Shown here: piece by piece, positions 8,206 to 41,275 of the stretch
Numbering within the stretch: position 1 is the stretch's first letter
Layout: each line of letters starts with the position of its first letter
Origin: Escherichia coli
GTDB lineage: Bacteria; Pseudomonadota; Gammaproteobacteria; Enterobacterales; Enterobacteriaceae
Assembly: GCF_003790525.1 (NCBI RefSeq)
Contig: NZ_CP033635.1
Strand: one strand, 5' to 3'
DNA length: 64,000 nt
The notes under the pieces: generated by a model
The model's input: only the letters and a program-made list of their open reading frames with translations
Databases searched by the model: none
What the model was told of the DNA's origin: nothing
Position numbers and translations under genes: made by a program

Positions 8206-8281
8206 TGGCTCCTCTGACTGGACTCGAACCAGTGACATACGGATTAACAGTCCGCCGTTCTACCGACTGAACTACAGAGGA
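8206..8281 (-). tRNA. asnW: tRNA-Asn (GTT anticodon)
   Basis: 76-nt reverse complement of the tRNA-Asn sequence also present at 10030 and 12439; ends in CCA. Confidence 0.95.
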
Positions 8282-8381: not shown

Positions 8382-9869
8382 TTATTCCGACACAGCTGGC
8401 TTTTTTTCACACTTTTGCGGTTCGGATCGAGGGTATTTCCACAGCCAACGTCCAGTAACCATTCGCCAGTAAAACAGCACGGCCCGCACAGCCCAGTCGG
8501 CAAACATTCCCATCCAGACACCAACCACACCCCAGCCAAGCATGATGCCCAGCACATAACCGACGACAACCCGGCAACCCCACATGCTCAACATAGAAAC
8601 CCACATGGCGTAACGGGCATCGCGAGCACCTTTAAATCCAGCGGGTAGCACCCATGAGGCGGACCAAATAGGCATAAATAAAGCATTTAGCCAAATCAGA
8701 ATCACAACGACATGTTTAACCTGTGGATCCTGGGTGTAAAACGATGCCATAACCCCGGCAAAGGGAGCCGTTAGCCAGGCGATGGCCGTTAATCCAAGAG
8801 TGGAAAGCCAGAACACATGCCGCAACTGAATCTCTGCTTGCGCTATCTGCCCTACCCCCAACCTTCGGCCTGTAATGATCGTAGAAGCAGAGCCGAGCGC
8901 ACTTCCGGGTAAGTTGATAAGAGCCGCAATTGAAAACGCGATAAAATTTCCGGCAATAACACTGGTCCCCATCCCGGCAACGAACATTTGGGTTAATAAC
9001 CGACCACTGGTAAATAACACTGATTCGACACTCGCTGGAATACCAATCCCCATGACTTCCCAGATAATGCTAAAATTCAGCGGTTTAAAATAGCTCTTTA
9101 ACGAAATCCTTAGCGCAGGATTAAAACCAATCGCCAGCACCCACAAAATTGCAACTGCGCCAATATAACGAGAAATGGTTAAACCCAACCCAGCCCCGAC
9201 AAATCCCAGTCCCGGCCAGGAGAAAAGGCCGTAAATCAATATGCCGCTAATAATAATATTAAGAATATTCAGGCTACCGTTAATCAGTAGCGGTATTTTC
9301 GTATTCCCTGCACCACGAAGTGCCCCGCTACCAATCAAAGTGATGGCAGCTGCTGGATAACTGAGTGCCGTCAGCTCCAGATAAGTCAACGCCAGTGCTT
9401 TAACTTCTGTCGTGGCATCACCCGCGACGAAATCAATAATTTGTTCGCCAAAATGATGAATAAGCGTTGCCAACAGTACGGCAAACAACGTCATGATCAC
9501 CAATGACTGCCGCGTCGCCACCCTCGCTCGTCGTCGATCCCGCTTACCGAGACTAAATGCCACAACGACAGTAGTACCAAGATCGATAGCAGCAAAAAAA
9601 GCCATAATGACCATATTGAAGCTGTCCGCCAATCCCACGCCGGCCATCGCATCTTTTCCCAGCCAGCTGACCAGAAAAGTGCTCAGGACACCCATCAACA
9701 GGACACAGGCATTCTCCATGAAGATAGGAACAGCAAGCGGGGTTATCTCGCGCCAGAACAACACTTTGTAGCTCTTGCGTTTAGCGTGCCAGCGAGTGCC
9801 GTGAACAACCTGGCGTAAAGCAGAGGAGATATTCAAAGCCGACCTTAATTGCAGAAAGTGAAACCACAT
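8382..9869 (-). CDS. yeeO: MATE-family efflux transporter; start taken at internal Met (MWHFLQLRS...) of the longer ORF 8382..10022
   Basis: multi-TM MATE-like ORF; synteny between asnW and asnU. Confidence 0.85.
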   Translation of the reverse strand: MWFHFLQLRSALNISSALRQVVHGTRWHAKRKSYKVLFWREITPLAVPIFMENACVLLMGVLSTFLVSWLGKDAMAGVGLADSFNMVIMAFFAAIDLGTTVVVAFSLGKRDRRRARVATRQSLVIMTLFAVLLATLIHHFGEQIIDFVAGDATTEVKALALTYLELTALSYPAAAITLIGSGALRGAGNTKIPLLINGSLNILNIIISGILIYGLFSWPGLGFVGAGLGLTISRYIGAVAILWVLAIGFNPALRISLKSYFKPLNFSIIWEVMGIGIPASVESVLFTSGRLLTQMFVAGMGTSVIAGNFIAFSIAALINLPGSALGSASTIITGRRLGVGQIAQAEIQLRHVFWLSTLGLTAIAWLTAPFAGVMASFYTQDPQVKHVVVILIWLNALFMPIWSASWVLPAGFKGARDARYAMWVSMLSMWGCRVVVGYVLGIMLGWGVVGVWMGMFADWAVRAVLFYWRMVTGRWLWKYPRSEPQKCEKKPAVSE

Positions 9870-10029
9870 TTCAAATAATGAGGGAGAATCAGCAAAGCTG
9901 CAAAGATTTTCGCCAACAAATTGTCTGCAAATGCAACAAACTGTTGATAGAAACGGCAAACAGTTGGGGAATTTAAAAATCGGGTTTGACAAAAGATTTT
10001 TCGCCGTTAAGATGTGCCTCAACAGCGAT

Positions 10030-10105
10030 TCCTCTGTAGTTCAGTCGGTAGAACGGCGGACTGTTAATCCGTATGTCACTGGTTCGAGTCCAGTCAGAGG
10101 AGCCA
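10030..10105 (+). tRNA. asnU: tRNA-Asn (GTT)
   Basis: TCCTCTGTAGTTCAGTCGGTAGAACGGCGGACTGTTAATCCGTATGTCACTGGTTCGAGTCCAGTCAGAGGAGCCA. Confidence 0.95.
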
Positions 10106-10114
10106 AATTTCTGA

Positions 10115-10142
10115 AAAGCCCGCTTTTATAGCGGGCTTTTTG
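10115..10142 (+). terminator. rho-independent terminator after asnU (GC hairpin AGCCCGC...GCGGGCT plus T run)
   Basis: hairpin and T tract read in sequence. Confidence 0.7.
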
Positions 10143-11093
10143 CTATATCTGATAATCAATTTCCTCTTCACTGTTTTCCATCACCTGCCGCTTGATATCC
10201 TCAACTGACAGTCCTGCATTACAAAGTTCCAGAAAGCGCCAGACATAGTTACGCTGAAGTTGTCCTCGCTTCAGTCCCAACCAGACAGTATTAGCATCGA
10301 AAAGATGCCGCGTATCCAGACGGATTAAATTCTCTTCCTCTTGTTCGCCGCTGGATTGTTCGGCAACTAATCCGATCCCAAGCCCAAGAGCAACATAGGT
10401 TTTAATGACATCAGAATCCTGCGCACTTAATACAATATCTGCCAGCAAACCTTTGCGGGCAAATGCGTCATCAATACGTGAGCGCCCCGTAATCCCCTGT
10501 CGGTAAGTGATTAACGGCCACTTCGCTATTGATTCCAGCGTCAATGGTGAAATTTGCGTCAAGGGATGATCGTGTGGAACAAGCAAACTATGGTGCCAAC
10601 GAAACCACGGGAAGGCGACGAGCTGCGGGTCATTACTCAAACGCTCGCTGGCGATACCAATATCAGCTTCGCCATTTTGCAACAATGTCGCAATTTCCTG
10701 TGGCGTCCCCTGGATTAGCCCGAGCCGAACCTCCGGGAAAAGTTCGCGAAAAGCTTTAATGACCTCTGGCAAGCTATAACGTGCCTGAGTATGCGTCGTT
10801 GCAATAGTGAGAACGCCAGACGTATCGTTGGTAAACAGGTCTGCAAGCCGACGAACATTACTGGCTTCATTCAGAATACGTTCTGCAATGACCAGTAATG
10901 CTTTGCCCGGTTCAGTCATGCCCAGCAGTCGCTTACCTCGTCGAACAAATATTTCGATGCCAAGTTCATCCTCCAGTTCCCGAATATGACGGCTGACGCC
11001 TGACTGTGAGGTAAAAAGCATATTCGCAACCTCTGTCAGGTTGTAATCCTGACGTGCAGCCTCGCGGATTATCTTTAGTTGTTGGAAATTCAC
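10143..11093 (-). CDS. cbl: LysR-family regulator Cbl
   Basis: 316 aa ORF with N-terminal LysR HTH; conserved position next to nac. Confidence 0.9.
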   Translation of the reverse strand: MNFQQLKIIREAARQDYNLTEVANMLFTSQSGVSRHIRELEDELGIEIFVRRGKRLLGMTEPGKALLVIAERILNEASNVRRLADLFTNDTSGVLTIATTHTQARYSLPEVIKAFRELFPEVRLGLIQGTPQEIATLLQNGEADIGIASERLSNDPQLVAFPWFRWHHSLLVPHDHPLTQISPLTLESIAKWPLITYRQGITGRSRIDDAFARKGLLADIVLSAQDSDVIKTYVALGLGIGLVAEQSSGEQEEENLIRLDTRHLFDANTVWLGLKRGQLQRNYVWRFLELCNAGLSVEDIKRQVMENSEEEIDYQI

Positions 11094-11194
11094 GGTAAAC
11101 TCCGGGCAGTTCAGATTTCCCGTTATTGTTAAAGTCTAATGCCCGGCATAACAAATAATAAAAACCCGCATCTTATTCCATTCCGATATAACAC

Positions 11195-32257: not shown

Positions 32258-33592
32258 TCAGAACATACTCACCACAAGAAATCCCAGAAGCACTGAGAAA
32301 GCAATAGCCAGTACACCCGGAATAAAGAAAGCATGGTTGAACACATACTTACCAATACGGGTCGTTCCTGTGTCATCCATTTGCACCGCCCCCAGAAGGG
32401 TTGGGTAAGTTGGTAACACAAATAAAGCAGACACAGCAGCAAAAGAAGCTACCAGCATGTAACTGTCATCCGGATTCGCTGCAGTAATACCCAATGCAGT
32501 CACAATAGCCGGAGTGATAGCTTTGGCAGTTGCAGCCTGTGAATACAGAAGCATCGCAGCCAGGAAAAATACCACAGCCAGAAGAGCTGGATACTGGGAT
32601 ACAGTAGTTCTGGCAAGCTCCTTAATTTCTCCTGAATGACCAGATACAAAAGTGTCCCCCAACCATGCCACACCCAGTACACAGATACAGGCAACCATGC
32701 CTGACTTGAACACAGAGGAGTCCGCAATCTTGTTTATATCTGCTTTACAGAAAAGGGTAATGAATCCGCCAACCAGTAGCATGAGACTCATAATAGCCGC
32801 ATCACGACTAACAACAACGTTATCAATCAGACCCAGCGTCGGGCTAATGGCCGAAGCGTAAAGGACCACCAGGATGACGCCAATAAGGAAAATTGCGACA
32901 GATCGTCTGGCATAAGGCTTGAGCTGTTTGTTAACACTCTTTACTGGCGCGCTTACGAGTCCTTTGGAAAGACGCTCCCGGTAAACCGGATCATTGTCTA
33001 ATTTCATGTCAGAAATCAGACTGATTATAAATGCGGTAAGCATGCAACCAACGAATGTGGTAAACAACCATATCCCAAGCAATACTGGATAACTCCACCC
33101 AAAGCCTTCCAGTACGCCAGACATATAGATAACGGCAGCCGATACAGGTGATGCTGTAATTGCAATTTGAGATGATACAACCGCAATTGAGAGCGGACAT
33201 GAGGGCTTAATGTTTTGTTCTTTGGAAACTTCGACAATTACAGGGATCATTGAAAATGCAGTATGTCCCGTACCGGCAAAGATTGTCAGCACATAAGTGA
33301 CAACCGGAGCCAGGTAATTAATATATTTTGGATTTTTACGAAGAATTCGTTCAGCGACCTGAACGAGATAGTCCAGTCCTCCCGCCAGTTGCATGGCCGA
33401 AATAGCAGAAATTACCGATGCAATAATTAGAATCACATCCCAGGGGATATTACCAGGCTTCATATCCAGACAAAGCCCCAGAATCAATACCCCAATGCCA
33501 CCGGCATAACCAATACCAATCCCGCCCATACGGACACCCAAAAAGATTGCCCCCAGCAGAACCACTATCTGAAGAACAGTGATAATATCCAT
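32258..33592 (-). CDS. DcuA-family anaerobic C4-dicarboxylate transporter paralog, downstream of the AspA-like gene
   Basis: 444 aa ORF; N-terminus closely parallels DcuA (…GNIPWDVILIIASVISAISAMQLAGGLDYLV…). Confidence 0.85.
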   Translation of the reverse strand: MDIITVLQIVVLLGAIFLGVRMGGIGIGYAGGIGVLILGLCLDMKPGNIPWDVILIIASVISAISAMQLAGGLDYLVQVAERILRKNPKYINYLAPVVTYVLTIFAGTGHTAFSMIPVIVEVSKEQNIKPSCPLSIAVVSSQIAITASPVSAAVIYMSGVLEGFGWSYPVLLGIWLFTTFVGCMLTAFIISLISDMKLDNDPVYRERLSKGLVSAPVKSVNKQLKPYARRSVAIFLIGVILVVLYASAISPTLGLIDNVVVSRDAAIMSLMLLVGGFITLFCKADINKIADSSVFKSGMVACICVLGVAWLGDTFVSGHSGEIKELARTTVSQYPALLAVVFFLAAMLLYSQAATAKAITPAIVTALGITAANPDDSYMLVASFAAVSALFVLPTYPTLLGAVQMDDTGTTRIGKYVFNHAFFIPGVLAIAFSVLLGFLVVSMF

Positions 33593-33747
33593 GATTCTCT
33601 CCCGAATTAGTGAGACACCTTTACCCCTGAGCTCCTCTCAACAAAGGCCTTATGGAATGTATTTTTACAAACATCCGGGCAGAGGACTGATACGTTTTCA
33701 TTCGCGCCATCCCCTGCCGGATCTCCCTTCTTACAGATTCTGAACAA

Positions 33748-35148
33748 TTATTGTTCGAACTTCGGAGCAATCAGATTATCCAGATTGAATGTCTTCTCCC
33801 ATTCTTCCTGTGTGAGTAGCTTACGTTCGACAACCACTATCTGATGGAGGGATTTGCCTGTATGGTATGCTTCGTGCGCCATTTCAGAACACACCTTATA
33901 TCCCAGATGTGGCTTCAGGAGAGTCACAATACCGCAGGAATGCATTACCATCTCTGCAGTTCGATCGGAATTAGCTGTAATGCCATCAATGCATTTAGTT
34001 CGGAGTGTGTTACAGGCATTCGTCATCACCTTGAGTGAGGTGAACAGCGCAAAGGTGATGACCGGCTCCATAACGTTAAGCTCAAGCTGACCAGCAGATG
34101 CCGCCAGCATCACTGTGGTGTCCAGCCCCTGAACCAGGAAGCAAGACTGGTTTGTTACTTCCGGGATAACGGGGTTAACCTTACCAGGCATAATGGAAGA
34201 ACCCGGTTGCAATTGAGGCAGGTTAATTTCAGCCAGGCCGCAACGGGGGCCTGAAGCAAGCAGTCGAATGTCATTACAAACCTTGGTAAGCTTCACAGAG
34301 AGGCTCTTCATGGCCGAACTGAGTGCAACATATGCACCACAGTCGCTTGTGGCAGCGATGAGATCTTCACTGTTCCTGAAATTAATGCCTGTGATCTGGG
34401 CCAGATATTTCACGGCTAAAGCGGGATAATCCGGGTGAGCGGTAACACAGGTACCAATCGCAGTAGCACCAAGGTTTACAACCCGCAGGTGTTCCTGTGC
34501 ATTACGGATGACCCGAATTTCATCATTAATTGTAAAACCCCAGCCATGGAACTCCTGGCCGAGAGTCATTGGCACTGCATCCTGCAGGTGAGTACGTCCC
34601 ATCTTGAGCACTGTGCTGAACTCGTCAGCCTTTTTGTAGAATGCTCCTACGAGGTGTTCAACAGCTTCAAGCAATACATTGCTTCGCAGCAGCAATGCCA
34701 GATGTAATGCTGTCGGATATGTATCATTGGTGGACTGACCAAAATTAGCATGGTCGTTTGGCGAAACGCGTTTGTAATCCCCTTTAACGCTACCAAGTTT
34801 TTCTGCAGCAAGATTACAAATCACTTCATTGCAGTTCATATTGGTTGACGTTCCGGCTCCCCCCTGAAGCCAGTCGGTCACAAACTGTTCCCGGTACTTA
34901 CCATCAATTAATTGGTCGCAAGCCCAGATTAAAGCATCCGCAACATCAGCAGGAATTGTACCTAACTCCTTATTAGCCATCGCAGCTGCTTTTTTCACAT
35001 AACCGAAGGCAATGATGAAGAAGGGCTCCTGACTCATTGGCATTTCAGTAATATGGAAATTATCCTCACCACGAAGTGTCTGAACACCATAATAGCAATC
35101 ATCCGGAACTTCACGCTCACCAAGGAAATCGCTTTCAATACGAGACAT
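33748..35148 (-). CDS. aspartate ammonia-lyase-family enzyme (AspA paralog), copy 1
   Basis: 466 aa ORF with fumarate-lyase signature GSSIMPGKVNPV; gene order lyase then Dcu transporter mirrors aspA-dcuA. Confidence 0.85.
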   Translation of the reverse strand: MSRIESDFLGEREVPDDCYYGVQTLRGEDNFHITEMPMSQEPFFIIAFGYVKKAAAMANKELGTIPADVADALIWACDQLIDGKYREQFVTDWLQGGAGTSTNMNCNEVICNLAAEKLGSVKGDYKRVSPNDHANFGQSTNDTYPTALHLALLLRSNVLLEAVEHLVGAFYKKADEFSTVLKMGRTHLQDAVPMTLGQEFHGWGFTINDEIRVIRNAQEHLRVVNLGATAIGTCVTAHPDYPALAVKYLAQITGINFRNSEDLIAATSDCGAYVALSSAMKSLSVKLTKVCNDIRLLASGPRCGLAEINLPQLQPGSSIMPGKVNPVIPEVTNQSCFLVQGLDTTVMLAASAGQLELNVMEPVITFALFTSLKVMTNACNTLRTKCIDGITANSDRTAEMVMHSCGIVTLLKPHLGYKVCSEMAHEAYHTGKSLHQIVVVERKLLTQEEWEKTFNLDNLIAPKFEQ

Positions 35149-36013
35149 AATTTTCTAACTCCATTTTTCGAAAACAATGTGACAATAACAAATTGTTTTC
35201 ATAAAACACTTATCCAACATTAAGAATGAATACTTATAATCACCAGATGACATAACCATTACCATCTAATGGAATATATTTAAACTAATAAGATAAACTT
35301 AAAACGTGATATCAAGCACATTTTTATAACGTTAAAATTAGTGGGTTATTTAGCAATCAAATATAACCAGTAAAAGCCCGAAATATGCAGATAACGCTGC
35401 ACTAATATGATTAAGATCAAAAAAAACAATTCCGCAATCAAACTTATTATTAATGCTGATTTTTTAAATCATGATTAAGTAGAACTATTTTATAATAGCA
35501 TCCCGGTTTGGTCACATCCTTCAGAAAAACAACCTGTTTACCACCATAGAAAATCTATATCTCTGCTAGGTTTTCCAGCGTTGTAGATATAGTCACTCAT
35601 GGTGATTCTTATTAAGATAAGAGTTTTTACACGGGAATGTTATTGCACTTCTAATTGATAAATCTTGGAATAGAGTAGAAAACGTAATGTTTCCACTCCA
35701 TCTTCCGCTTTAATGGTTTGTAATTTGAGTTAGATCATGGATTTTAACATCCATTATGATTAATTATTTTTAGATGATTTGATCACTAAATCGTCTTTCA
35801 GGGTGTAACGGCATTAATCATCACAAGCTAAAAAAACGCCATACTGTAATGGAGTCTGTATTTTATGTTCAATCATGCAAAGGCTCTTCATAATTATCAT
35901 TTCTCTCTTGGAAAAATGACAGCCTGAACATAGCATAAATTCACGTTCTTCAGAGTCAGAAGGTGTTAATAAACTGTCCCTAAAATCTGGAAAATGTTGA
36001 AGAAGGCATCTCA

Positions 36014-37270
36014 ATGGATATTGTCGAACGCTTTATCAATTATACAAAAATTAATACCACTACCTCACGAGAAAACGGCGCAAAAGGGATCATGCCTTCA
36101 TCTCCTGGTCAGATGAAACTTGCGAAATTGTTGGTGAGTGAACTTGAAGCATTGGGTATGGAGGATATTATTCTCAGAGAGAATGCTATCGTAACAGCAA
36201 CACTCCCTGCAAATACTGACGAAACAATCCCCGTCGTTTCCTTTTTTGGACATCTGGACACCAGTGCCGAACAGACAGCCGATACAAAAGCGCAACGATT
36301 ACCTTATAATGGGGGCGATCTCTGTCTGAACCCTGAACTGAATATTTATTTGCGTGAGAGTGAATTCCCGGAGCTCAAAAATTATATTGGCGATGACCTT
36401 ATAGTGACAGATGGTACCAGCCTTCTGGGGGCCGATGATAAAGCGGCGCTGGCGGCCATAATGAACGCACTTCAATTTCTGATTTCTCATCCTGAAATCA
36501 GGCATGGAGAAGTTAAAGTTGGGTTTGTGCCAGATGAAGAGCAGGGGTTACGGGGGGCCAAAGCCTTCGATGTTTCAGAGTTTGGCGCAGATTTTGGCTA
36601 CACTCTGGATTGCTGCGGTATTGGAGAATTTGTTTACGAAAACTGGAATGCGGGTGATGCAGAAATTATCTTTACCGGCCAGTCTGCACACCCTATGTCA
36701 GCGAAAGGCAAGCTTAAGAACTCTCTTTTGATGGCTCACAAATTCATTTCGATGTTGCCAGGAGGAGAAGCGCCTGAATATACAGAAGGACGCGAAGGCT
36801 ATTATTGGGTGAAACAGTTACAGGGAAACAGTGCCAGAACTGTACTAAAACTGGATATACGAGATTTCAGCGAGGAAGGATATCACGCCCGGAAGACATT
36901 TGTACGCCAGCTTGCAGAAAGTGCTTGTGCATTATGGGGAGAAGGAAGCGTGATCTGCCAACTGAGCGATCGGTACGCCAATGTCTTTAACAGTCTGCAG
37001 GGAGAGGGGCATTATCCCATCGACATTGCCCTGCGAGCTTACCAACGATGTGGTATTACTCCGACACCGGTGGCGATGCGTGGAGGATATGATGGCGCTG
37101 TTCTTTCACAAAAAGGATTACCCTGCCCGAACATTTTTACCGGCGCACATAATTTCCATTCTATCTATGAATATCTTCCAGTCCGTTCACTTCGGGCGGC
37201 AAGTGATGTGGTTATTGCCATCATTCAGGAGACATTCAATGGGTTCACCACAGGGAATCGTGAGTCATGA
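36014..37270 (+). CDS. peptidase T-like M20-family peptidase
   Basis: 418 aa ORF; HLDTS, GADDKAA and FVPDEE metal-ligand motifs. Confidence 0.75.
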   Translation: MDIVERFINYTKINTTTSRENGAKGIMPSSPGQMKLAKLLVSELEALGMEDIILRENAIVTATLPANTDETIPVVSFFGHLDTSAEQTADTKAQRLPYNGGDLCLNPELNIYLRESEFPELKNYIGDDLIVTDGTSLLGADDKAALAAIMNALQFLISHPEIRHGEVKVGFVPDEEQGLRGAKAFDVSEFGADFGYTLDCCGIGEFVYENWNAGDAEIIFTGQSAHPMSAKGKLKNSLLMAHKFISMLPGGEAPEYTEGREGYYWVKQLQGNSARTVLKLDIRDFSEEGYHARKTFVRQLAESACALWGEGSVICQLSDRYANVFNSLQGEGHYPIDIALRAYQRCGITPTPVAMRGGYDGAVLSQKGLPCPNIFTGAHNFHSIYEYLPVRSLRAASDVVIAIIQETFNGFTTGNRES

Positions 37271-38628
37271 TTAAAGTTGTTATCGCGCTTCTTGTTATCG
37301 TGATAGTTGCTCGCTTAATCCTGAAAGGATATCGTGCAGAACCCGTGCTTTTTATTGCCGGGCTTGCGCTGATGGTTTGTACCTGGTTTACCGGTTGGGG
37401 CACAGTGTTACCGAAGGGCGTGTCCGGTACAGGAATTAGTTTTCTTGATCCTTTCGAAGTCATGCGCAATTTATTCAGTACCCGTGCGGCTGATCTCGGT
37501 CTGATGATTATGACCCTGATGGGATTTGCGCATTACATGGACCATATCGGTGCGAATGAAGCGGTTGTCCGTGTGGTAACCCGGCCATTACGGACATTAC
37601 GTTCCCCCTATGTTCTGCTTTTTTTCTCTTATCTTTTCGCCAGTCTTCTTCAACTGGCTATCCCCTCAGCTACCGGACTTGCTGTTTTACTGATGGGAAC
37701 CATGTTTCCTATTATGCTCGGACTCGGGCTGTCAGCAGCGTCTGCCGCAGGGGTAATTGCCACCTCTCTTGGTGTGGCGTACACACCGACAGCCATTGAC
37801 GCCATACGAGGCTCTGAAGCGGTAAATATGGATGTGGTGGAGTATGTTGTCTATCATCAGGGGCCTGCTGCTCTGGCGACTGTTCTGATTGTCGGTATCA
37901 GCCACTTTTTCTGGCAGAAACACTGTGATCGTAAAGCTGGAACATTACCTCATGAAATTGGTACGACAACGGTCATAAAAGCAGGCAGTACGCCGGCTTA
38001 TTATGCTCTGCTACCTATGCTACCGATCCTGATGGCCGTTGGCTCATCGGAGATTTTTGTCACCGGAATTAATCTCAATATCATTACGATTGTTCTTATC
38101 TCAATGGCAATTTGCATGCTGATCGAATGGGTCCGTAAATGTGATCTGAAAGCTGTATGTGACGGGTTTACCCATTTCCTGAAAGGAATGGGGACAGCAT
38201 TTACCGGCGTGGTGGGCTTACTGGTGGCCGCAGGTGTGTTTGCTCATGGGATTAAAAGCATTGGCGCGATAGATCAATTAATTTTGATGGCAGAGCACGT
38301 TGGGTTACCCCCTTTTGCGATGGGCATCGTTTTTGCTCTGGTTACACTGGCTGCAGCTGTCATTATGGGATCGGGCAATGCGCCATTTCTGGCTTTTGTT
38401 GAACTGATACCACAAATCGCTGCCAGCATGGGCGTGAATGCCATATCGATGATCCTGCCTATGCAGCAGGCTTCCCATATGGGGCGTGCGATGTCTCCCG
38501 TATCTGGCGTGGTTATAGCGGTTTCCAGTGGAGCAAATATAACTCCCTTCGAAGTGGTAAAACGCACTGCTTTACCCCTGATAGTTGGTTTTGTTTTTCA
38601 CTCTGCGATTATCGGTATTTTTTATTAA
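37267..38628 (+). CDS. DcuC-family C4-dicarboxylate transporter paralog
   Basis: 453 aa multi-[19 protein letters not shown] and [10 protein letters not shown]…SPFEVVKRT motifs; start overlaps the peptidase stop. Confidence 0.8.
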
Positions 38629-38818
38629 CTTGTTTTAGATTGTCATCCTCCACGCCCAGAAGGATGTGGATTCCTGCTAATCAGGCTATTGCCGGAATCA
38701 TTTCGGTGGGCTCCTGCTTAAACAAAAGGCCTGACTGCACCATCTCTTTACAGGCAAGTACGGCGTGCCCTGCAGCTAAAATATTACGGGTGCCGTTTAC
38801 ATCGGCGCTCGCTGCATA

Positions 38819-39900
38819 TGTGCGCCGGGCATGGCGCGTAGCGCCGTGACTGGCGCTGTTCTTCAACTGTGGTGGCTGAAGAACGACTAAGAGGTGAAAG
38901 TCCTCCACACACCCGGTGAGGGGAAGTGTTAGCGGAAGGCAAGGGTGTTCATCGCGAGGTGAAATCTGAAGGAAGCCGGATGCAAAATGCTGGCCTGACG
39001 AACAGGAAGCGGTTAAGGCGGCGCAGCAGGGTAAGGTGGCACAAATCACCAAAGCCCGATACTCACACGGAACGCTGTGACGTAAAGCCGACAGGCATAA
39101 GCAGGAAAGTCGCGTGAATTACCCCGGGAGATCTGTCGCCCTGCCAGTGTGCTACCGGTGCCGTGAGGCGCCGGGATGGGGCGGCAGAAGTCAGCCGACG
39201 CCGTAGTAGTGCTGCAAAACCGGCAGCATGAAGGGCCGAACATGATTAACTGTGATTAGGACATCCGAACCCGATGATGATTAATGAAGCACACGCGCAG
39301 GCAACTGCGGCCAGCGGCAGAGGAGACGGACAGTATCCGTCAGGGCTGCATGATGGCGCTGAAATCAGCACGGCGGCGGGTGGGCAAACGAAAGCGGAAG
39401 TGCCGCTGACGATGGAAGCGGTGATAACGAGAGAAAACCTGATGCTGGCTTATCAGCGCGTGGTGGAAAACAAAGGTGTGTCGGAGTTGAAACCGTGGCT
39501 GAAGAAGAACTGGCGCAGCGTATGGCAGGTATTGATTGACGGAAACTACCAGCCGCGGGCAATACGCCGGATGGATATCCCGAAGCCGGATGGCGGCGTG
39601 AGAACCTTAGGCATCCCGACGGTGGTGGACAGGCTTATCCAGCAGGCGATAGCGCAGCAGTTAAGCGCCATCGTGGACACAGCTTCTGCCGCTACGCAGA
39701 CGACTGCAACATCTACGTAAGCAGCCGGAAAGCGGGCGACCATCTGCTGAAGGACATCAGGGCGTTCGTGGAGAGCAAACTGAAACAGAAGGTGAATGAG
39801 AAGAAGAGCGCGGTGGCGCGCCCGTGGGAGCGGAAGTTGTGGGCTGACAGTGACGGACCGTGCTGCTTCACCAAACGCCTTGGACGGCAGGCGGAACTTG
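38819..39900 (+). mobile_element. truncated group II intron: GUGCG 5' end, structured GC-rich domain I region and a degraded intron-encoded reverse transcriptase
   Basis: GTGCGCCGGGCATGGCGCG… at 38819; ORF 39274..39720 has RT domain 0-2 residues (IPKPDGGVRTLGIPTVVDRLIQQAIAQ); a YADD motif appears out of frame downstream. Confidence 0.6.
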
Positions 39901-40243
39901 GATCGTTACGTACTTGAAAAGTGGATCAACAAGAGGGTTCAACGAGACTGGGGAGTTATATTTCTTTCTCAAGGTCCGGCATTTATCTCTTCCACATGAA
40001 ATCTCGATATAAAGTCAGACACGGATGTCCTACTGAAAGCGGGGGGAAGTATGGTGATAGAGGTCAGCGGGAACCTATCCATAAAAGTCACTCATTACAC
40101 TAAAAAATATGTGCATATTATTTGCGTGCAATTAAATTTTGCAAAATCGAATTAGCATAATTTTTTTTGATAGAAGTCAAATAAACATAATGGAAAAAGT
40201 TTAAATATTTATATTGTATAAACTTCAGACAAAAGGAGGAGTT

Positions 40244-41275
40244 ATGAATAAAATAAAAGGTATAACAGTAATGGCAGCCTTCGCATTGTGTATAGGATAT
40301 GCTCACGCTGAATCTCAAACGCCAATACGCCTTGTAATTCATGGTGGAGCTGGCACCATAACAAAAGATACTATTACACCTGAACAAGAAAAACAATACA
40401 GAGAAAAGTTAACAGATGCACTAAATGCTGGGTATGCTGTGCTTAATAGTGGAGGAAGTAGCCTTGATGCTGTTCAGCGTGCAATTAATGTTATGGAGGA
40501 CTCTCCCCTCTTCAATGCTGGAAAAGGCGCTGTCTTTACTCATGATGGCAAAAACGAACTTGATGCTGCAATTATGGATGGAAAAACCAAAATGGCCGGA
40601 GCCGTTGCAGGAGTGACGACCATAAAAAACCCTATAAACGCTGCTTATGCAGTTATGACTAAAAGCCCTCATGTATTAATGATCTCTAATGGTGCGGAAC
40701 TATTTGCAAAAGAGCAAGGCTTAGTTATGGTTGAGCCAGCATATTTCAAAACTGATTTCCGTTGGCAACAGCTACAGAACGCTTTAAAAGACGAAAAAAT
40801 AACCCTTGATCATAATGGTAAATCAGCATCTCTTTTACTCCCCCCAAAGAACTACGACTATAAATATGGAACTGTTGGAGCAGTCGCGTTGGACAAAGAT
40901 GGTAATCTGGCAGCTGGAACATCAACAGGAGGTATGACAAATAAACGTTACGGACGCGTAGGTGACTCGCCAATAATTGGAGCAGGAACCTATGCCGATA
41001 ATAATACCGTTGCTGTTTCTGCTACAGGTACTGGAGAAATGTTTATTAGAACTTCAACTGCATACAATATTGCTGCTCAGGTGAAATATAAAAATACACC
41101 ATTGAAAGAAGCAGCTCAAAATGCGCTTGATGAAGTTAAAAACATTAATGGTAGTGGTGGTGTCATTGTTCTAGATAAGAATGGTAATTATACTATGAGT
41201 TTCAATACAGAAGGGATGTATCGTGGAACTATCGGCAACGATGGTAAAGCTATCGTATCAATTTATGAACAATAG
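40244..41275 (+). CDS. secreted plant-type asparaginase / isoaspartyl peptidase (Ntn hydrolase)
   Basis: ORF 40214..41275; signal peptide after MNKIKG; GGAGT…TSTGGM…GDSPIIGAG motifs; AGGAGG before the ATG at 40244. Confidence 0.8.
   Translation: MNKIKGITVMAAFALCIGYAHAESQTPIRLVIHGGAGTITKDTITPEQEKQYREKLTDALNAGYAVLNSGGSSLDAVQRAINVMEDSPLFNAGKGAVFTHDGKNELDAAIMDGKTKMAGAVAGVTTIKNPINAAYAVMTKSPHVLMISNGAELFAKEQGLVMVEPAYFKTDFRWQQLQNALKDEKITLDHNGKSASLLLPPKNYDYKYGTVGAVALDKDGNLAAGTSTGGMTNKRYGRVGDSPIIGAGTYADNNTVAVSATGTGEMFIRTSTAYNIAAQVKYKNTPLKEAAQNALDEVKNINGSGGVIVLDKNGNYTMSFNTEGMYRGTIGNDGKAIVSIYEQ

Follow-up and report, generated by a model that had tools for sequence, protein, structure and literature searches.

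Introduction

In the bacterial operons aspA-dcuA, dcuB-fumB, and abgABT, what the carrier takes up serves as the substrate of the enzyme encoded next to it, and the AbgA/AbgB hydrolases encoded by the last of these cleave an imported acidic peptide-like substrate. The Escherichia coli carriers DcuC (b0621) and DcuD (YhcL, b3227) are encoded by core genes that are monocistronic and have no adjoining peptidase gene, and the core E. coli pepT gene is likewise monocistronic and located between potA and roxA. Here, we analyzed a 64,000-nucleotide stretch of E. coli DNA (contig NZ_CP033635.1 of RefSeq assembly GCF_003790525.1; referred to as the window) in which a pepT-like gene (36014..37270, plus strand) is directly followed by a gene for a further DcuC-family carrier (37267..38628, plus strand).

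Our results lead us to regard this pair, on the basis of comparative sequence data, as an old, co-inherited two-gene cassette with near-obligate linkage. We further propose, with a probability of roughly 45%, that the pair is a bicistronic, translationally coupled operon that acts as an uptake-and-cleave module, its substrate being small acidic peptides and/or aspartate.

Results

Conserved linkage and junction of the two genes

The open reading frames of the peptidase (418 amino acids) and the carrier (453 amino acids) both start with ATG, and the junction between them (GTGAGTCATGATTAAA) holds a translational-coupling start/stop overlap, a 4-nucleotide ATGA (37267..37270, plus strand) in which the carrier ATG (37267-37269) overlaps the peptidase TGA (37268-37270), just as a preliminary description of this DNA had stated. 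A weak Shine-Dalgarno-like stretch (AGGGAA ... GTGAG; 37252..37264, plus strand) can be read inside the 3' end of the pepT-like gene, before the carrier start, and a clearer GGAG is found 7 to 10 nucleotides before the ATGA at the orthologous junctions of Proteus, Providencia, and Edwardsiella; a GGAG usually lies just upstream of the junction among the linked loci described below. In RefSeq, the genes carry the annotations pepT (WP_000355772.1) and dcuC (WP_000598813.1), and the DNA of the region matches the E. coli SMS-3-5 chromosome (NC_010498.1, reverse strand) at 100% identity.

To examine linkage, we scanned a single representative genome of each GTDB species, using an alignment of carrier clade sequences as the query, and obtained 78 loci. 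A PepT gene (59 to 90% identical to that of the window) is located immediately upstream and on the same strand in 46 of the 47 loci whose carriers share 48% identity or more with that of the window, and in none of the 31 loci of the DcuC, DcuD, or Firmicutes type, where carrier identity is at most 43%. The linked loci come from more than 12 genera, among them the Enterobacterales Citrobacter, Edwardsiella, Providencia, Proteus, Morganella, Budvicia, Pragia, and Limnobaculum, as well as Aeromonas, the Vibrionaceae Enterovibrio, Photobacterium, and Vibrio owensii, Psychromonas, and an Actinobacillus metagenome-assembled genome (MAG) of the Pasteurellaceae; many of these bacteria live in the gut or the sea. 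A linked pair in Aliivibrio fischeri is known from a separate look-up outside the species scan; an "aspartate theme" around this copy was considered and rejected, its neighbors being a glutamate decarboxylase and an AspT-like antiporter below the cutoff.

The junction of the linked loci spans -4 to +9 nucleotides. It is tight in every one of the 51 linked loci that represent other taxa (about 40 have ATGA, the others -1, +2, or +9 nucleotides), which argues that the overlap is beyond chance. Genes flanking the pair are genus-specific and non-homologous between genera, and similarity to any other genus at the DNA level is confined to positions 36008 through 38631, which coincide with the borders of the gene pair, so that the conserved unit consists of exactly these two. 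Moreover, the identities of the two proteins to those of the window correlate across the 46 loci (r = 0.955), and the linked genes fall into the same two subclades in the PepT tree and in the carrier tree. It is this combination of conserved linkage, junction, co-divergence, matching trees, and unrelated flanks that points to an old, co-inherited cassette. A recent transfer of the pair from Citrobacter was considered and is unsupported, as the best DNA identity is 82% and ends at the gene borders.

The preliminary description had suggested a homology search for the co-occurrence of M20 peptidase and DcuC genes in other genomes and had allowed that the two might turn out to be unrelated neighbors without linkage elsewhere; the co-occurrence is conserved, and the latter outcome is contradicted by the scan. 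Although the E. coli island that carries the pair is a mosaic with many insertion sequence (IS), TnpB, and group II intron remnants and pseudogenes, it is hardly credible that the adjacency is meaningless and the 4-nucleotide overlap incidental. Linkage across so many genera with unrelated flanks, the conserved junction, the co-divergence of the genes, and the co-induction of both products in Edwardsiella (see below) refute this explanation as far as comparative genomics can refute it.

The linkage is asymmetric. PepTs of the same subfamily that are free of the carrier (69 to 76% identical) occur in Endozoicomonas, Photobacterium damselae, Photorhabdus, and Campylobacter, and Photobacterium frigidiphilum has an unlinked PepT (70% identical) in addition to a linked one (59%). 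Because PepT is often found without the carrier, whereas the carrier clade is almost never found without PepT, the carrier appears to be the partner that depends on the other, a pattern that would be expected if it were dedicated to importing what the enzyme cleaves.

The peptidase and the carrier

The pepT-like gene is predicted to encode a zinc tripeptidase (M20B) that resides in the cytoplasm and belongs to the PRK13381 subfamily of PepT, in agreement with the PepT-like assignment made previously. Its product scores above the curated cutoffs of the NCBIfam models PRK13381 "peptidase T" (554.9 bits; cutoff, 293) and PRK05469 (513.7 bits; cutoff, 255) and of the TIGR01882 equivalog (364 bits; cutoff, 285.75). 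It is 38% identical to K-12 PepT, and its closest solved structure is Bacillus anthracis PepT (3IFE, 340 bits), ahead of 1FNO and 1VIX. It has the two-domain M20 architecture of the Salmonella/E. coli enzyme (MEROPS M20B; 1FNO, 1VIX) and of B. anthracis PepT and retains each of their seven metal/catalytic residues (H80, D82, D141, E175, E176, D199, and H382 of the window protein), which are invariant in 67 of 67 aligned sequences. We take these to have the di-zinc and catalytic roles of H78, D80, D140, E173, E174, D196, and H379 in the K-12/Salmonella numbering, as described in the 1FNO literature. The window enzyme and E. coli PepT are of different PepT subfamilies; that of the window enzyme, PRK13381, is widespread among Vibrionaceae, Campylobacter, and Firmicutes. 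The window enzyme constitutes a second PepT in E. coli, paired with a carrier gene in contrast to the core copy. Its N terminus, judged by eye, has no signal peptide, which places it in the cytoplasm, and its PepT membership predicts a tripeptidase that releases the N-terminal residue.

The downstream gene encodes a DcuC-family secondary carrier (TC 2.A.61 / PF03606), a third E. coli paralog that is distinct from DcuC and DcuD. The family assignment, also made previously, holds well above the cutoffs of Pfam PF03606 DcuC (303.1 bits; cutoff, 23.1), TIGR00771 (380; cutoff, 187), and NF037994 DcuC_1 (362; cutoff, 100). DcuC and DcuD belong to the same Pfam family, have the same length, and share with the window carrier the SAT and GSGNAPF hairpin-type motifs and conserved arginines. 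However, the identity of the carrier amounts to only 44% with DcuC and 39% with DcuD, and its scores stay below both equivalog cutoffs (DcuC PRK10654, 440.9 versus 513; DcuD PRK09804, 326.9 versus 623), so that it does not qualify as an ortholog of either, and in a neighbor-joining tree the PepT-linked carriers form one monophyletic clade that is sister to K-12 DcuC. Residues that are specific to the clade in comparison with DcuC include E25, T173, D178, G323, Q401, and H445; we considered them as an amino-group-binding site, a lead only, which cannot be interpreted without a substrate-bound structure.

A sequence search of the PDB with the carrier gave no matches. An AlphaFold2 (AF2) model of the carrier (predicted local distance difference test [pLDDT], 80.3; predicted template modeling score [pTM], 0.75) matched, in a Foldseek search, a MleN model, NaDC3, SiaQM, VcINDY, and YdaH/MtrF with E values of 1e-7 to 1e-3 and template modeling (TM) scores of 0.4 to 0.67. 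The model thus predicts an elevator fold of the ion-transporter superfamily (DASS, TRAP-DctM, AbgT, and NhaC type).

Other DcuC-family carriers beside exopeptidases

Pairing with cytoplasmic exopeptidases is not restricted to the clade of the window carrier. In 11 of the 31 non-clade DcuC-family loci, a different cytoplasmic M20 hydrolase adjoins the carrier at a distance of 22 to 59 nucleotides or overlaps it. The partner is glutamate-carboxypeptidase-like in five Firmicutes and five Aeromonas loci and a TIGR01883 "PepT-like protein" in one Acidaminococcaceae MAG. None of these M20 partners has a signal peptide; an N-terminal extension of the Aeromonas partner that resembles one was discarded as an open reading frame-calling artifact, since homologs have stop codons there. 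Aeromonas finlandensis 4287D carries two DcuC-family/M20 pairs, the PepT-linked cassette and a second one in which the gene after that of the carrier encodes a glutamate-carboxypeptidase-like M20 enzyme.

The DcuC-family carrier of Campylobacter, only 25% identical to that of the window, has pepE, an Asp-X dipeptidase equivalog (300 bits), directly upstream in four of four loci. The same four loci have a PepT of the window subfamily (64 to 69% identical) just downstream, co-directional at 9 to 16 nucleotides in two of them, and in these two the gene string includes two further M20 amidohydrolases. In Campylobacter mucosalis and Campylobacter sp. faydin G-140 (loci L092, 702-6526, and L094, 559-6554), the tightly packed string consists of an M20 carbamoylase-type amidase, an M20 amidohydrolase (TIGR01891), PepE, the DcuC-family carrier, and PepT, and this five-gene string looks like a dedicated peptide utilization operon. 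Pairing of DcuC-family carriers with cytoplasmic exopeptidases thus arose several times, with PepT at least twice.

The Edwardsiella ortholog

The carrier of Edwardsiella piscicida is, by exact sequence, ACY83635.1 (ETAE_0790, "DcuC1"). It is 81% identical to the window carrier and is a true ortholog with the same pepT-ATGA-carrier arrangement; unlike in E. coli, the pair lies in the context dinB ... pepD, with no aspartate/fumarate island. Deletion of ETAE_0790 delayed growth in comparison with the wild type only when L-aspartate was added, not malate or fumarate, and lowered survival in H2O2, replication in macrophages, and bacterial loads in turbot (PMC10654080). The authors of that study inferred an L-aspartate transporter from the growth curves and studied the carrier as a single gene, and their text never mentions the upstream peptidase or the overlap of the adjacent genes (PMC10654080). 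Their Table S3 lists ETAE_0789 "peptidase T" as 2.03-fold up (p = 0.0023), among 17 proteins raised at least 2-fold by H2O2, and ETAE_0790 as detected in H2O2 samples only (PMC10654080). This co-induction of the ETAE_0789 and ETAE_0790 products supports, indirectly but at the protein level, co-expression of the pair, which had initially been deduced from the overlap in the window and is also backed by the conserved junction and linkage.

Proposed function of the pair

According to our model, the DcuC-type elevator carrier would import a small anionic amino acid substrate, most likely a short Asp- or Glu-containing peptide such as a tripeptide and possibly free L-aspartate too, after which the cytoplasmic zinc tripeptidase PepT would remove the N-terminal residue and general dipeptidases would finish the degradation. 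In E. coli, a mobile island of about 20 kb would have taken up the cassette, and the released aspartate could feed fumarate respiration and nitrogen supply, because the other modules of this island (AnsB, a beta-aspartyl-peptidase-like protein, AspA with its DcuA-type carrier, and a Dcu-type carrier paired with an ArgH-like lyase) all yield aspartate or fumarate.

Substrate identity, transport direction, and regulation of the pair are what we infer here, and several considerations make us favor peptides over C4-dicarboxylates. The carrier depends on PepT; its family is repeatedly paired with cytoplasmic exopeptidases, including the aspartate-specific PepE; and, by analogy, the carriers of aspA-dcuA, dcuB-fumB, and abgABT import the substrate of their partner enzyme. 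We also see no reason for tying an aspartate carrier to a tripeptidase. The linkage asymmetry and the recurrent peptidase partners suggest that the carrier may import the substrate of the hydrolase, and the comparative context points to a peptide importer at least as strongly as to a plain dicarboxylate carrier.

Several observations weigh against a peptide importer. The predicted elevator fold is a generic one by which dicarboxylate and peptide substrates cannot be told apart, and the carboxylate-type motifs (SAT and GSGNAPF) and the conserved arginines are unchanged in comparison with DcuC, for which reason plain C4-dicarboxylate/aspartate transport is a fully possible function. The island context is specific to E. 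coli and absent around the pair in other genera, and no FNR or CRP site shared across genera was found upstream of the 51 linked loci scanned, that is, no conserved regulator or operator. The sole unlinked carrier of the clade, that of Thaumasiovibrio, has no adjoining PepT gene and no PepT remnant upstream in a search up to an E value of 10; it is nested within the linked clade in the neighbor-joining tree, which suggests a secondary loss of linkage, and the genome has a PepT of the same subfamily elsewhere. Finally, the Edwardsiella phenotype was obtained in peptide-free defined medium and points to free L-aspartate, not peptides (PMC10654080).

A serious, if in our view somewhat less likely, alternative is that the carrier is an ordinary L-aspartate/C4-dicarboxylate carrier acting in uptake or exchange, in line with its annotation and with the proposal made for Edwardsiella DcuC1, and that PepT is merely co-regulated with it in an anaerobic or host-associated program, with peptides entering by Opp, Dpp, or Dtp, being degraded to aspartate, and being converted to fumarate and succinate. 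In K-12, core dcuC, pepE, aspA, and pepT are all FNR bound or FNR activated, as such a program would have it. Against this alternative, partner enzymes of the Dcu carriers in aspA-dcuA and dcuB-fumB act on the transported substrate, which sits poorly with an aspartate carrier joined to a tripeptidase. The retained carboxylate-binding-type motifs and arginines, the sister relationship of the clade to bona fide DcuC, the abundance of Asp, Asn, and fumarate genes in the E. coli island, and an ortholog knockout that is affected only with L-aspartate, in peptide-free medium (PMC10654080), all speak for this explanation. It leaves unexplained why the carrier clade is nearly always joined to PepT while PepT is often alone, and why other DcuC-family clades are wired to PepE and glutamate-carboxypeptidase-like enzymes.

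It is improbable, though conceivable, that the carrier works outward, exporting succinate, an amino acid, or a dipeptide, or that it exchanges an incoming peptide for an outgoing product, in which case the enzyme would be kept in the same operon because it makes the counter-substrate. E. coli DcuC is thought to serve mainly in succinate efflux during fermentation and can catalyze exchange (reportedly the work of Zientz et al. 1999), and obligate carrier-enzyme operons are typical of precursor/product antiport, as in aspT-aspD, arcD-arcABC, and gadC-gadB. The aspartate phenotype of Edwardsiella, moreover, cannot tell uptake from product efflux. However, peptide hydrolysis offers no obvious ionic or energetic gain from exchange, and the export of nutritionally valuable products is hard to rationalize.

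The preliminary description had also suggested a link between peptide breakdown and aspartate or succinate flux. The link to aspartate gains support from the L-aspartate-specific phenotype of the ortholog and from the island with its AspA, AnsB, DcuA/B-type, and beta-aspartyl-peptidase paralogs, whereas the underlying assumption of a plain dicarboxylate carrier is probably too simple.

Distribution in E. coli, upstream region, and island

The pair is present in 221 of 5426 complete E. coli genomes (219 at an identity of at least 99%), or about 4%, in comparison with 5424 genomes for core pepT and 5414 for core dcuC. By this distribution the two genes are accessory extra paralogs rather than housekeeping genes, and the carrier contrasts in this respect with its core relative. 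A 97.6% allele of the pair is found on five large E. coli plasmids. The ratio of nonsynonymous to synonymous substitution rates (dN/dS) between chromosomal and plasmid alleles is 0.10 for the pepT-like gene and 0.09 for the carrier gene, and for both genes it is 0.02 to 0.05 in comparison with Citrobacter; both are under purifying selection, with their function retained.

The pepT-like gene is separated from a divergently oriented aspA-like gene (minus strand) by an intergenic region of 865 bp (35149..36013), which must contain the promoter of the pair. This region holds no open reading frame of at least 80 amino acids, and a consensus scan of it found no strong plus-strand sigma-70 site; an Rfam search of the region upstream of the pair found no leader, and a promoter and terminator scan around the pair gave nothing useful. 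Since DNA homology to other genera begins only at 36008, the regulatory region is specific to the E. coli island. Regulatory motifs were scanned in the 400 nucleotides upstream of the 51 linked loci (FNR, TTGAT-N4-ATCAA; CRP, TGTGA-N6-TCACA; up to 2 mismatches). Upstream of the window pair, the only FNR-like sites have 2 mismatches and lie at -289 and -127. CRP-like sites recur within genera (Proteus, -260; Providencia, -148; Budvicia, -151; Aeromonas, -200), and the Actinobacillus MAG has one perfect CRP-like site; as regulatory evidence we set these aside, because the enrichment over chance is modest and the loci are non-independent.

The accessory island to which the pair belongs in E. coli is situated between cobU and hypT and has three tRNA-Asn genes in its vicinity. 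This mobile island of about 18 to 20 kb (23426-41275; 8427-26276 of locus L001) is built of modules that combine an enzyme with a Dcu-type carrier and yield aspartate or fumarate, and the same block is present on IncF/IncI conjugative plasmids. Besides the aspA-like gene, which encodes an aspartate ammonia-lyase paralog (33748..35148, minus strand; NCBIfam PRK12273, 680 bits), it includes a dcuA-like gene for a DcuA-type carrier (32258-33592; 620 bits), and together these two mirror the layout of the core aspA-dcuA operon. Downstream of the pair lies a gene of the isoaspartyl (beta-aspartyl) peptidase/asparaginase family by annotation (40271..41275, plus strand), the product of which scores 346 bits on the NCBIfam beta-aspartyl-peptidase model PRK10226, below the cutoff of 567. 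The rest of the island (23426..31770) holds, by annotation and NCBIfam matches, an argH-like lyase gene with a Dcu-type carrier gene, a second Dcu-type carrier gene, an FCD/GntR regulator gene, an orphan dcuR, and an ansB paralog. This context fits a role in aspartate and fumarate supply.

Some further features of the island and its surroundings deserve mention. At 23426-26183, an argininosuccinate lyase equivalog (TIGR00838, 615 bits) is followed after 64 nucleotides, on the same strand, by a DcuA/B-family carrier gene, an unusual pairing, which may indicate that argininosuccinate, or else a related N-(dicarboxyethyl) compound, is taken up and fumarate released from it. The DcuR response regulator equivalog (29405-30130; 313 bits; cutoff, 262) has no adjoining DcuS-type sensor kinase gene, and as the 980 nucleotides upstream hold only short open reading frames, it appears to be an orphan regulator. 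Directly after the carrier stop codon, at the downstream edge of the cassette in E. coli, lies a pseudogene fragment of an IS200/IS605-type TnpB (RNA-guided endonuclease family; 38681-38818). It is followed by a group II intron remnant (38948-39720; Rfam group-II-D1D4-3, 140 bits, and D1D4-1, 72 bits) with a 148-amino-acid "maturase" open reading frame after the intron matches (39274-39720), which looks like a truncated intron-encoded protein.

The three tRNA-Asn (GTT) genes, located upstream of the cob genes, are at 8206-8281, 10030-10105, and 12439-12514, asn-tRNA being a classical integration hot spot. Between them and the island there are fragments of colibactin island genes (ClbP and a thioesterase) as well as ibrB/phosphoadenosine phosphosulfate (PAPS) reductase genes. 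Minus-strand matches to the Hfq-binding small RNAs (sRNAs) isrC (150 bits) and STnc490 (122 bits), at 51872-51994 and 58604-58727, sit among IS remnants and adjoin a second dgo (galactonate) gene cluster.

Discussion

What appears to be new in our findings is a distinct DcuC-family clade, the third E. coli paralog, together with its near-obligate coupling to PepT and the wider pattern of DcuC-family carriers encoded beside exopeptidases. A full-text search of the published literature found no paper describing the pairing or the island and no description of the clade, the PepT coupling, or the wider exopeptidase pattern.

If the carrier imports peptides, a whole branch of the family that is annotated as "C4-dicarboxylate transporter DcuC" is misassigned, and bacteria possess an additional route of peptide uptake that metabolic models and studies of peptide antibiotic uptake ignore. 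The relevance for infection lies in the Edwardsiella ortholog, which the bacterium needs in order to survive oxidative stress, multiply in macrophages, and spread in fish. The island of E. coli amounts to a second copy of the Asn/Asp-to-fumarate pathway, known to support anaerobic growth in the gut, and it is found both on conjugative plasmids and in about 4% of complete genomes, with humans, poultry, and water as the sources of many. Even if the pair is read conservatively, as PepT co-expressed with a carrier for aspartate, it provides a concrete, testable link between peptide breakdown and fumarate respiration.

Our results also lead us to speculate, tentatively, that several DcuC-family clades are unrecognized secondary importers of peptides or acyl-amino acids, unrelated to POT, ABC, and CstA systems and each wired to a cytoplasmic exopeptidase (PepT, PepE, a glutamate-carboxypeptidase-like enzyme, or another M20 enzyme). 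The PepT-linked clade might then be dedicated to the uptake of tripeptides (aspartyl peptides), aiding host colonization and virulence, as in Edwardsiella, and its spread in E. coli might be proceeding by way of plasmids and of an island that generates fumarate. The pair is a solid, testable functional lead with some medical and annotation relevance, but mechanistically it is not surprising.

The two proteins clearly belong to known families, PepT and DcuC, and the design of the operon is like that of abgABT. In E. coli abgABT, a carrier of the ion-transporter superfamily is encoded together with the cytoplasmic M20 hydrolases AbgA/AbgB, and the window pair appears to follow the same design, with carrier and cytoplasmic M20 hydrolase in one conserved operon. 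However, the window carrier has no AbgT Pfam match and does not belong to the AbgT family (TC 2.A.68); the AbgT-family structures YdaH (4R0C) and MtrF (4R1I) are among its fold matches with TM scores of only 0.39 to 0.46, and DASS, TRAP, and NhaC-type carriers match its fold as well or better. The M20 subfamily differs too, being PepT in the window pair and of the amidohydrolase type in abgABT. A Dcu-type carrier that is co-transcribed with a cytoplasmic enzyme is also found in aspA-dcuA and dcuB-fumB, and an aspA/dcuA-type copy adjoins the pair in the island, but those operons combine DcuA/B-family carriers (TC 2.A.13) with C4-dicarboxylate lyases or hydratases, whereas the window pair combines a DcuC-family carrier with a peptidase. 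The resemblance of the pair to AbgT-type operons is one of function and architecture, not of membership.

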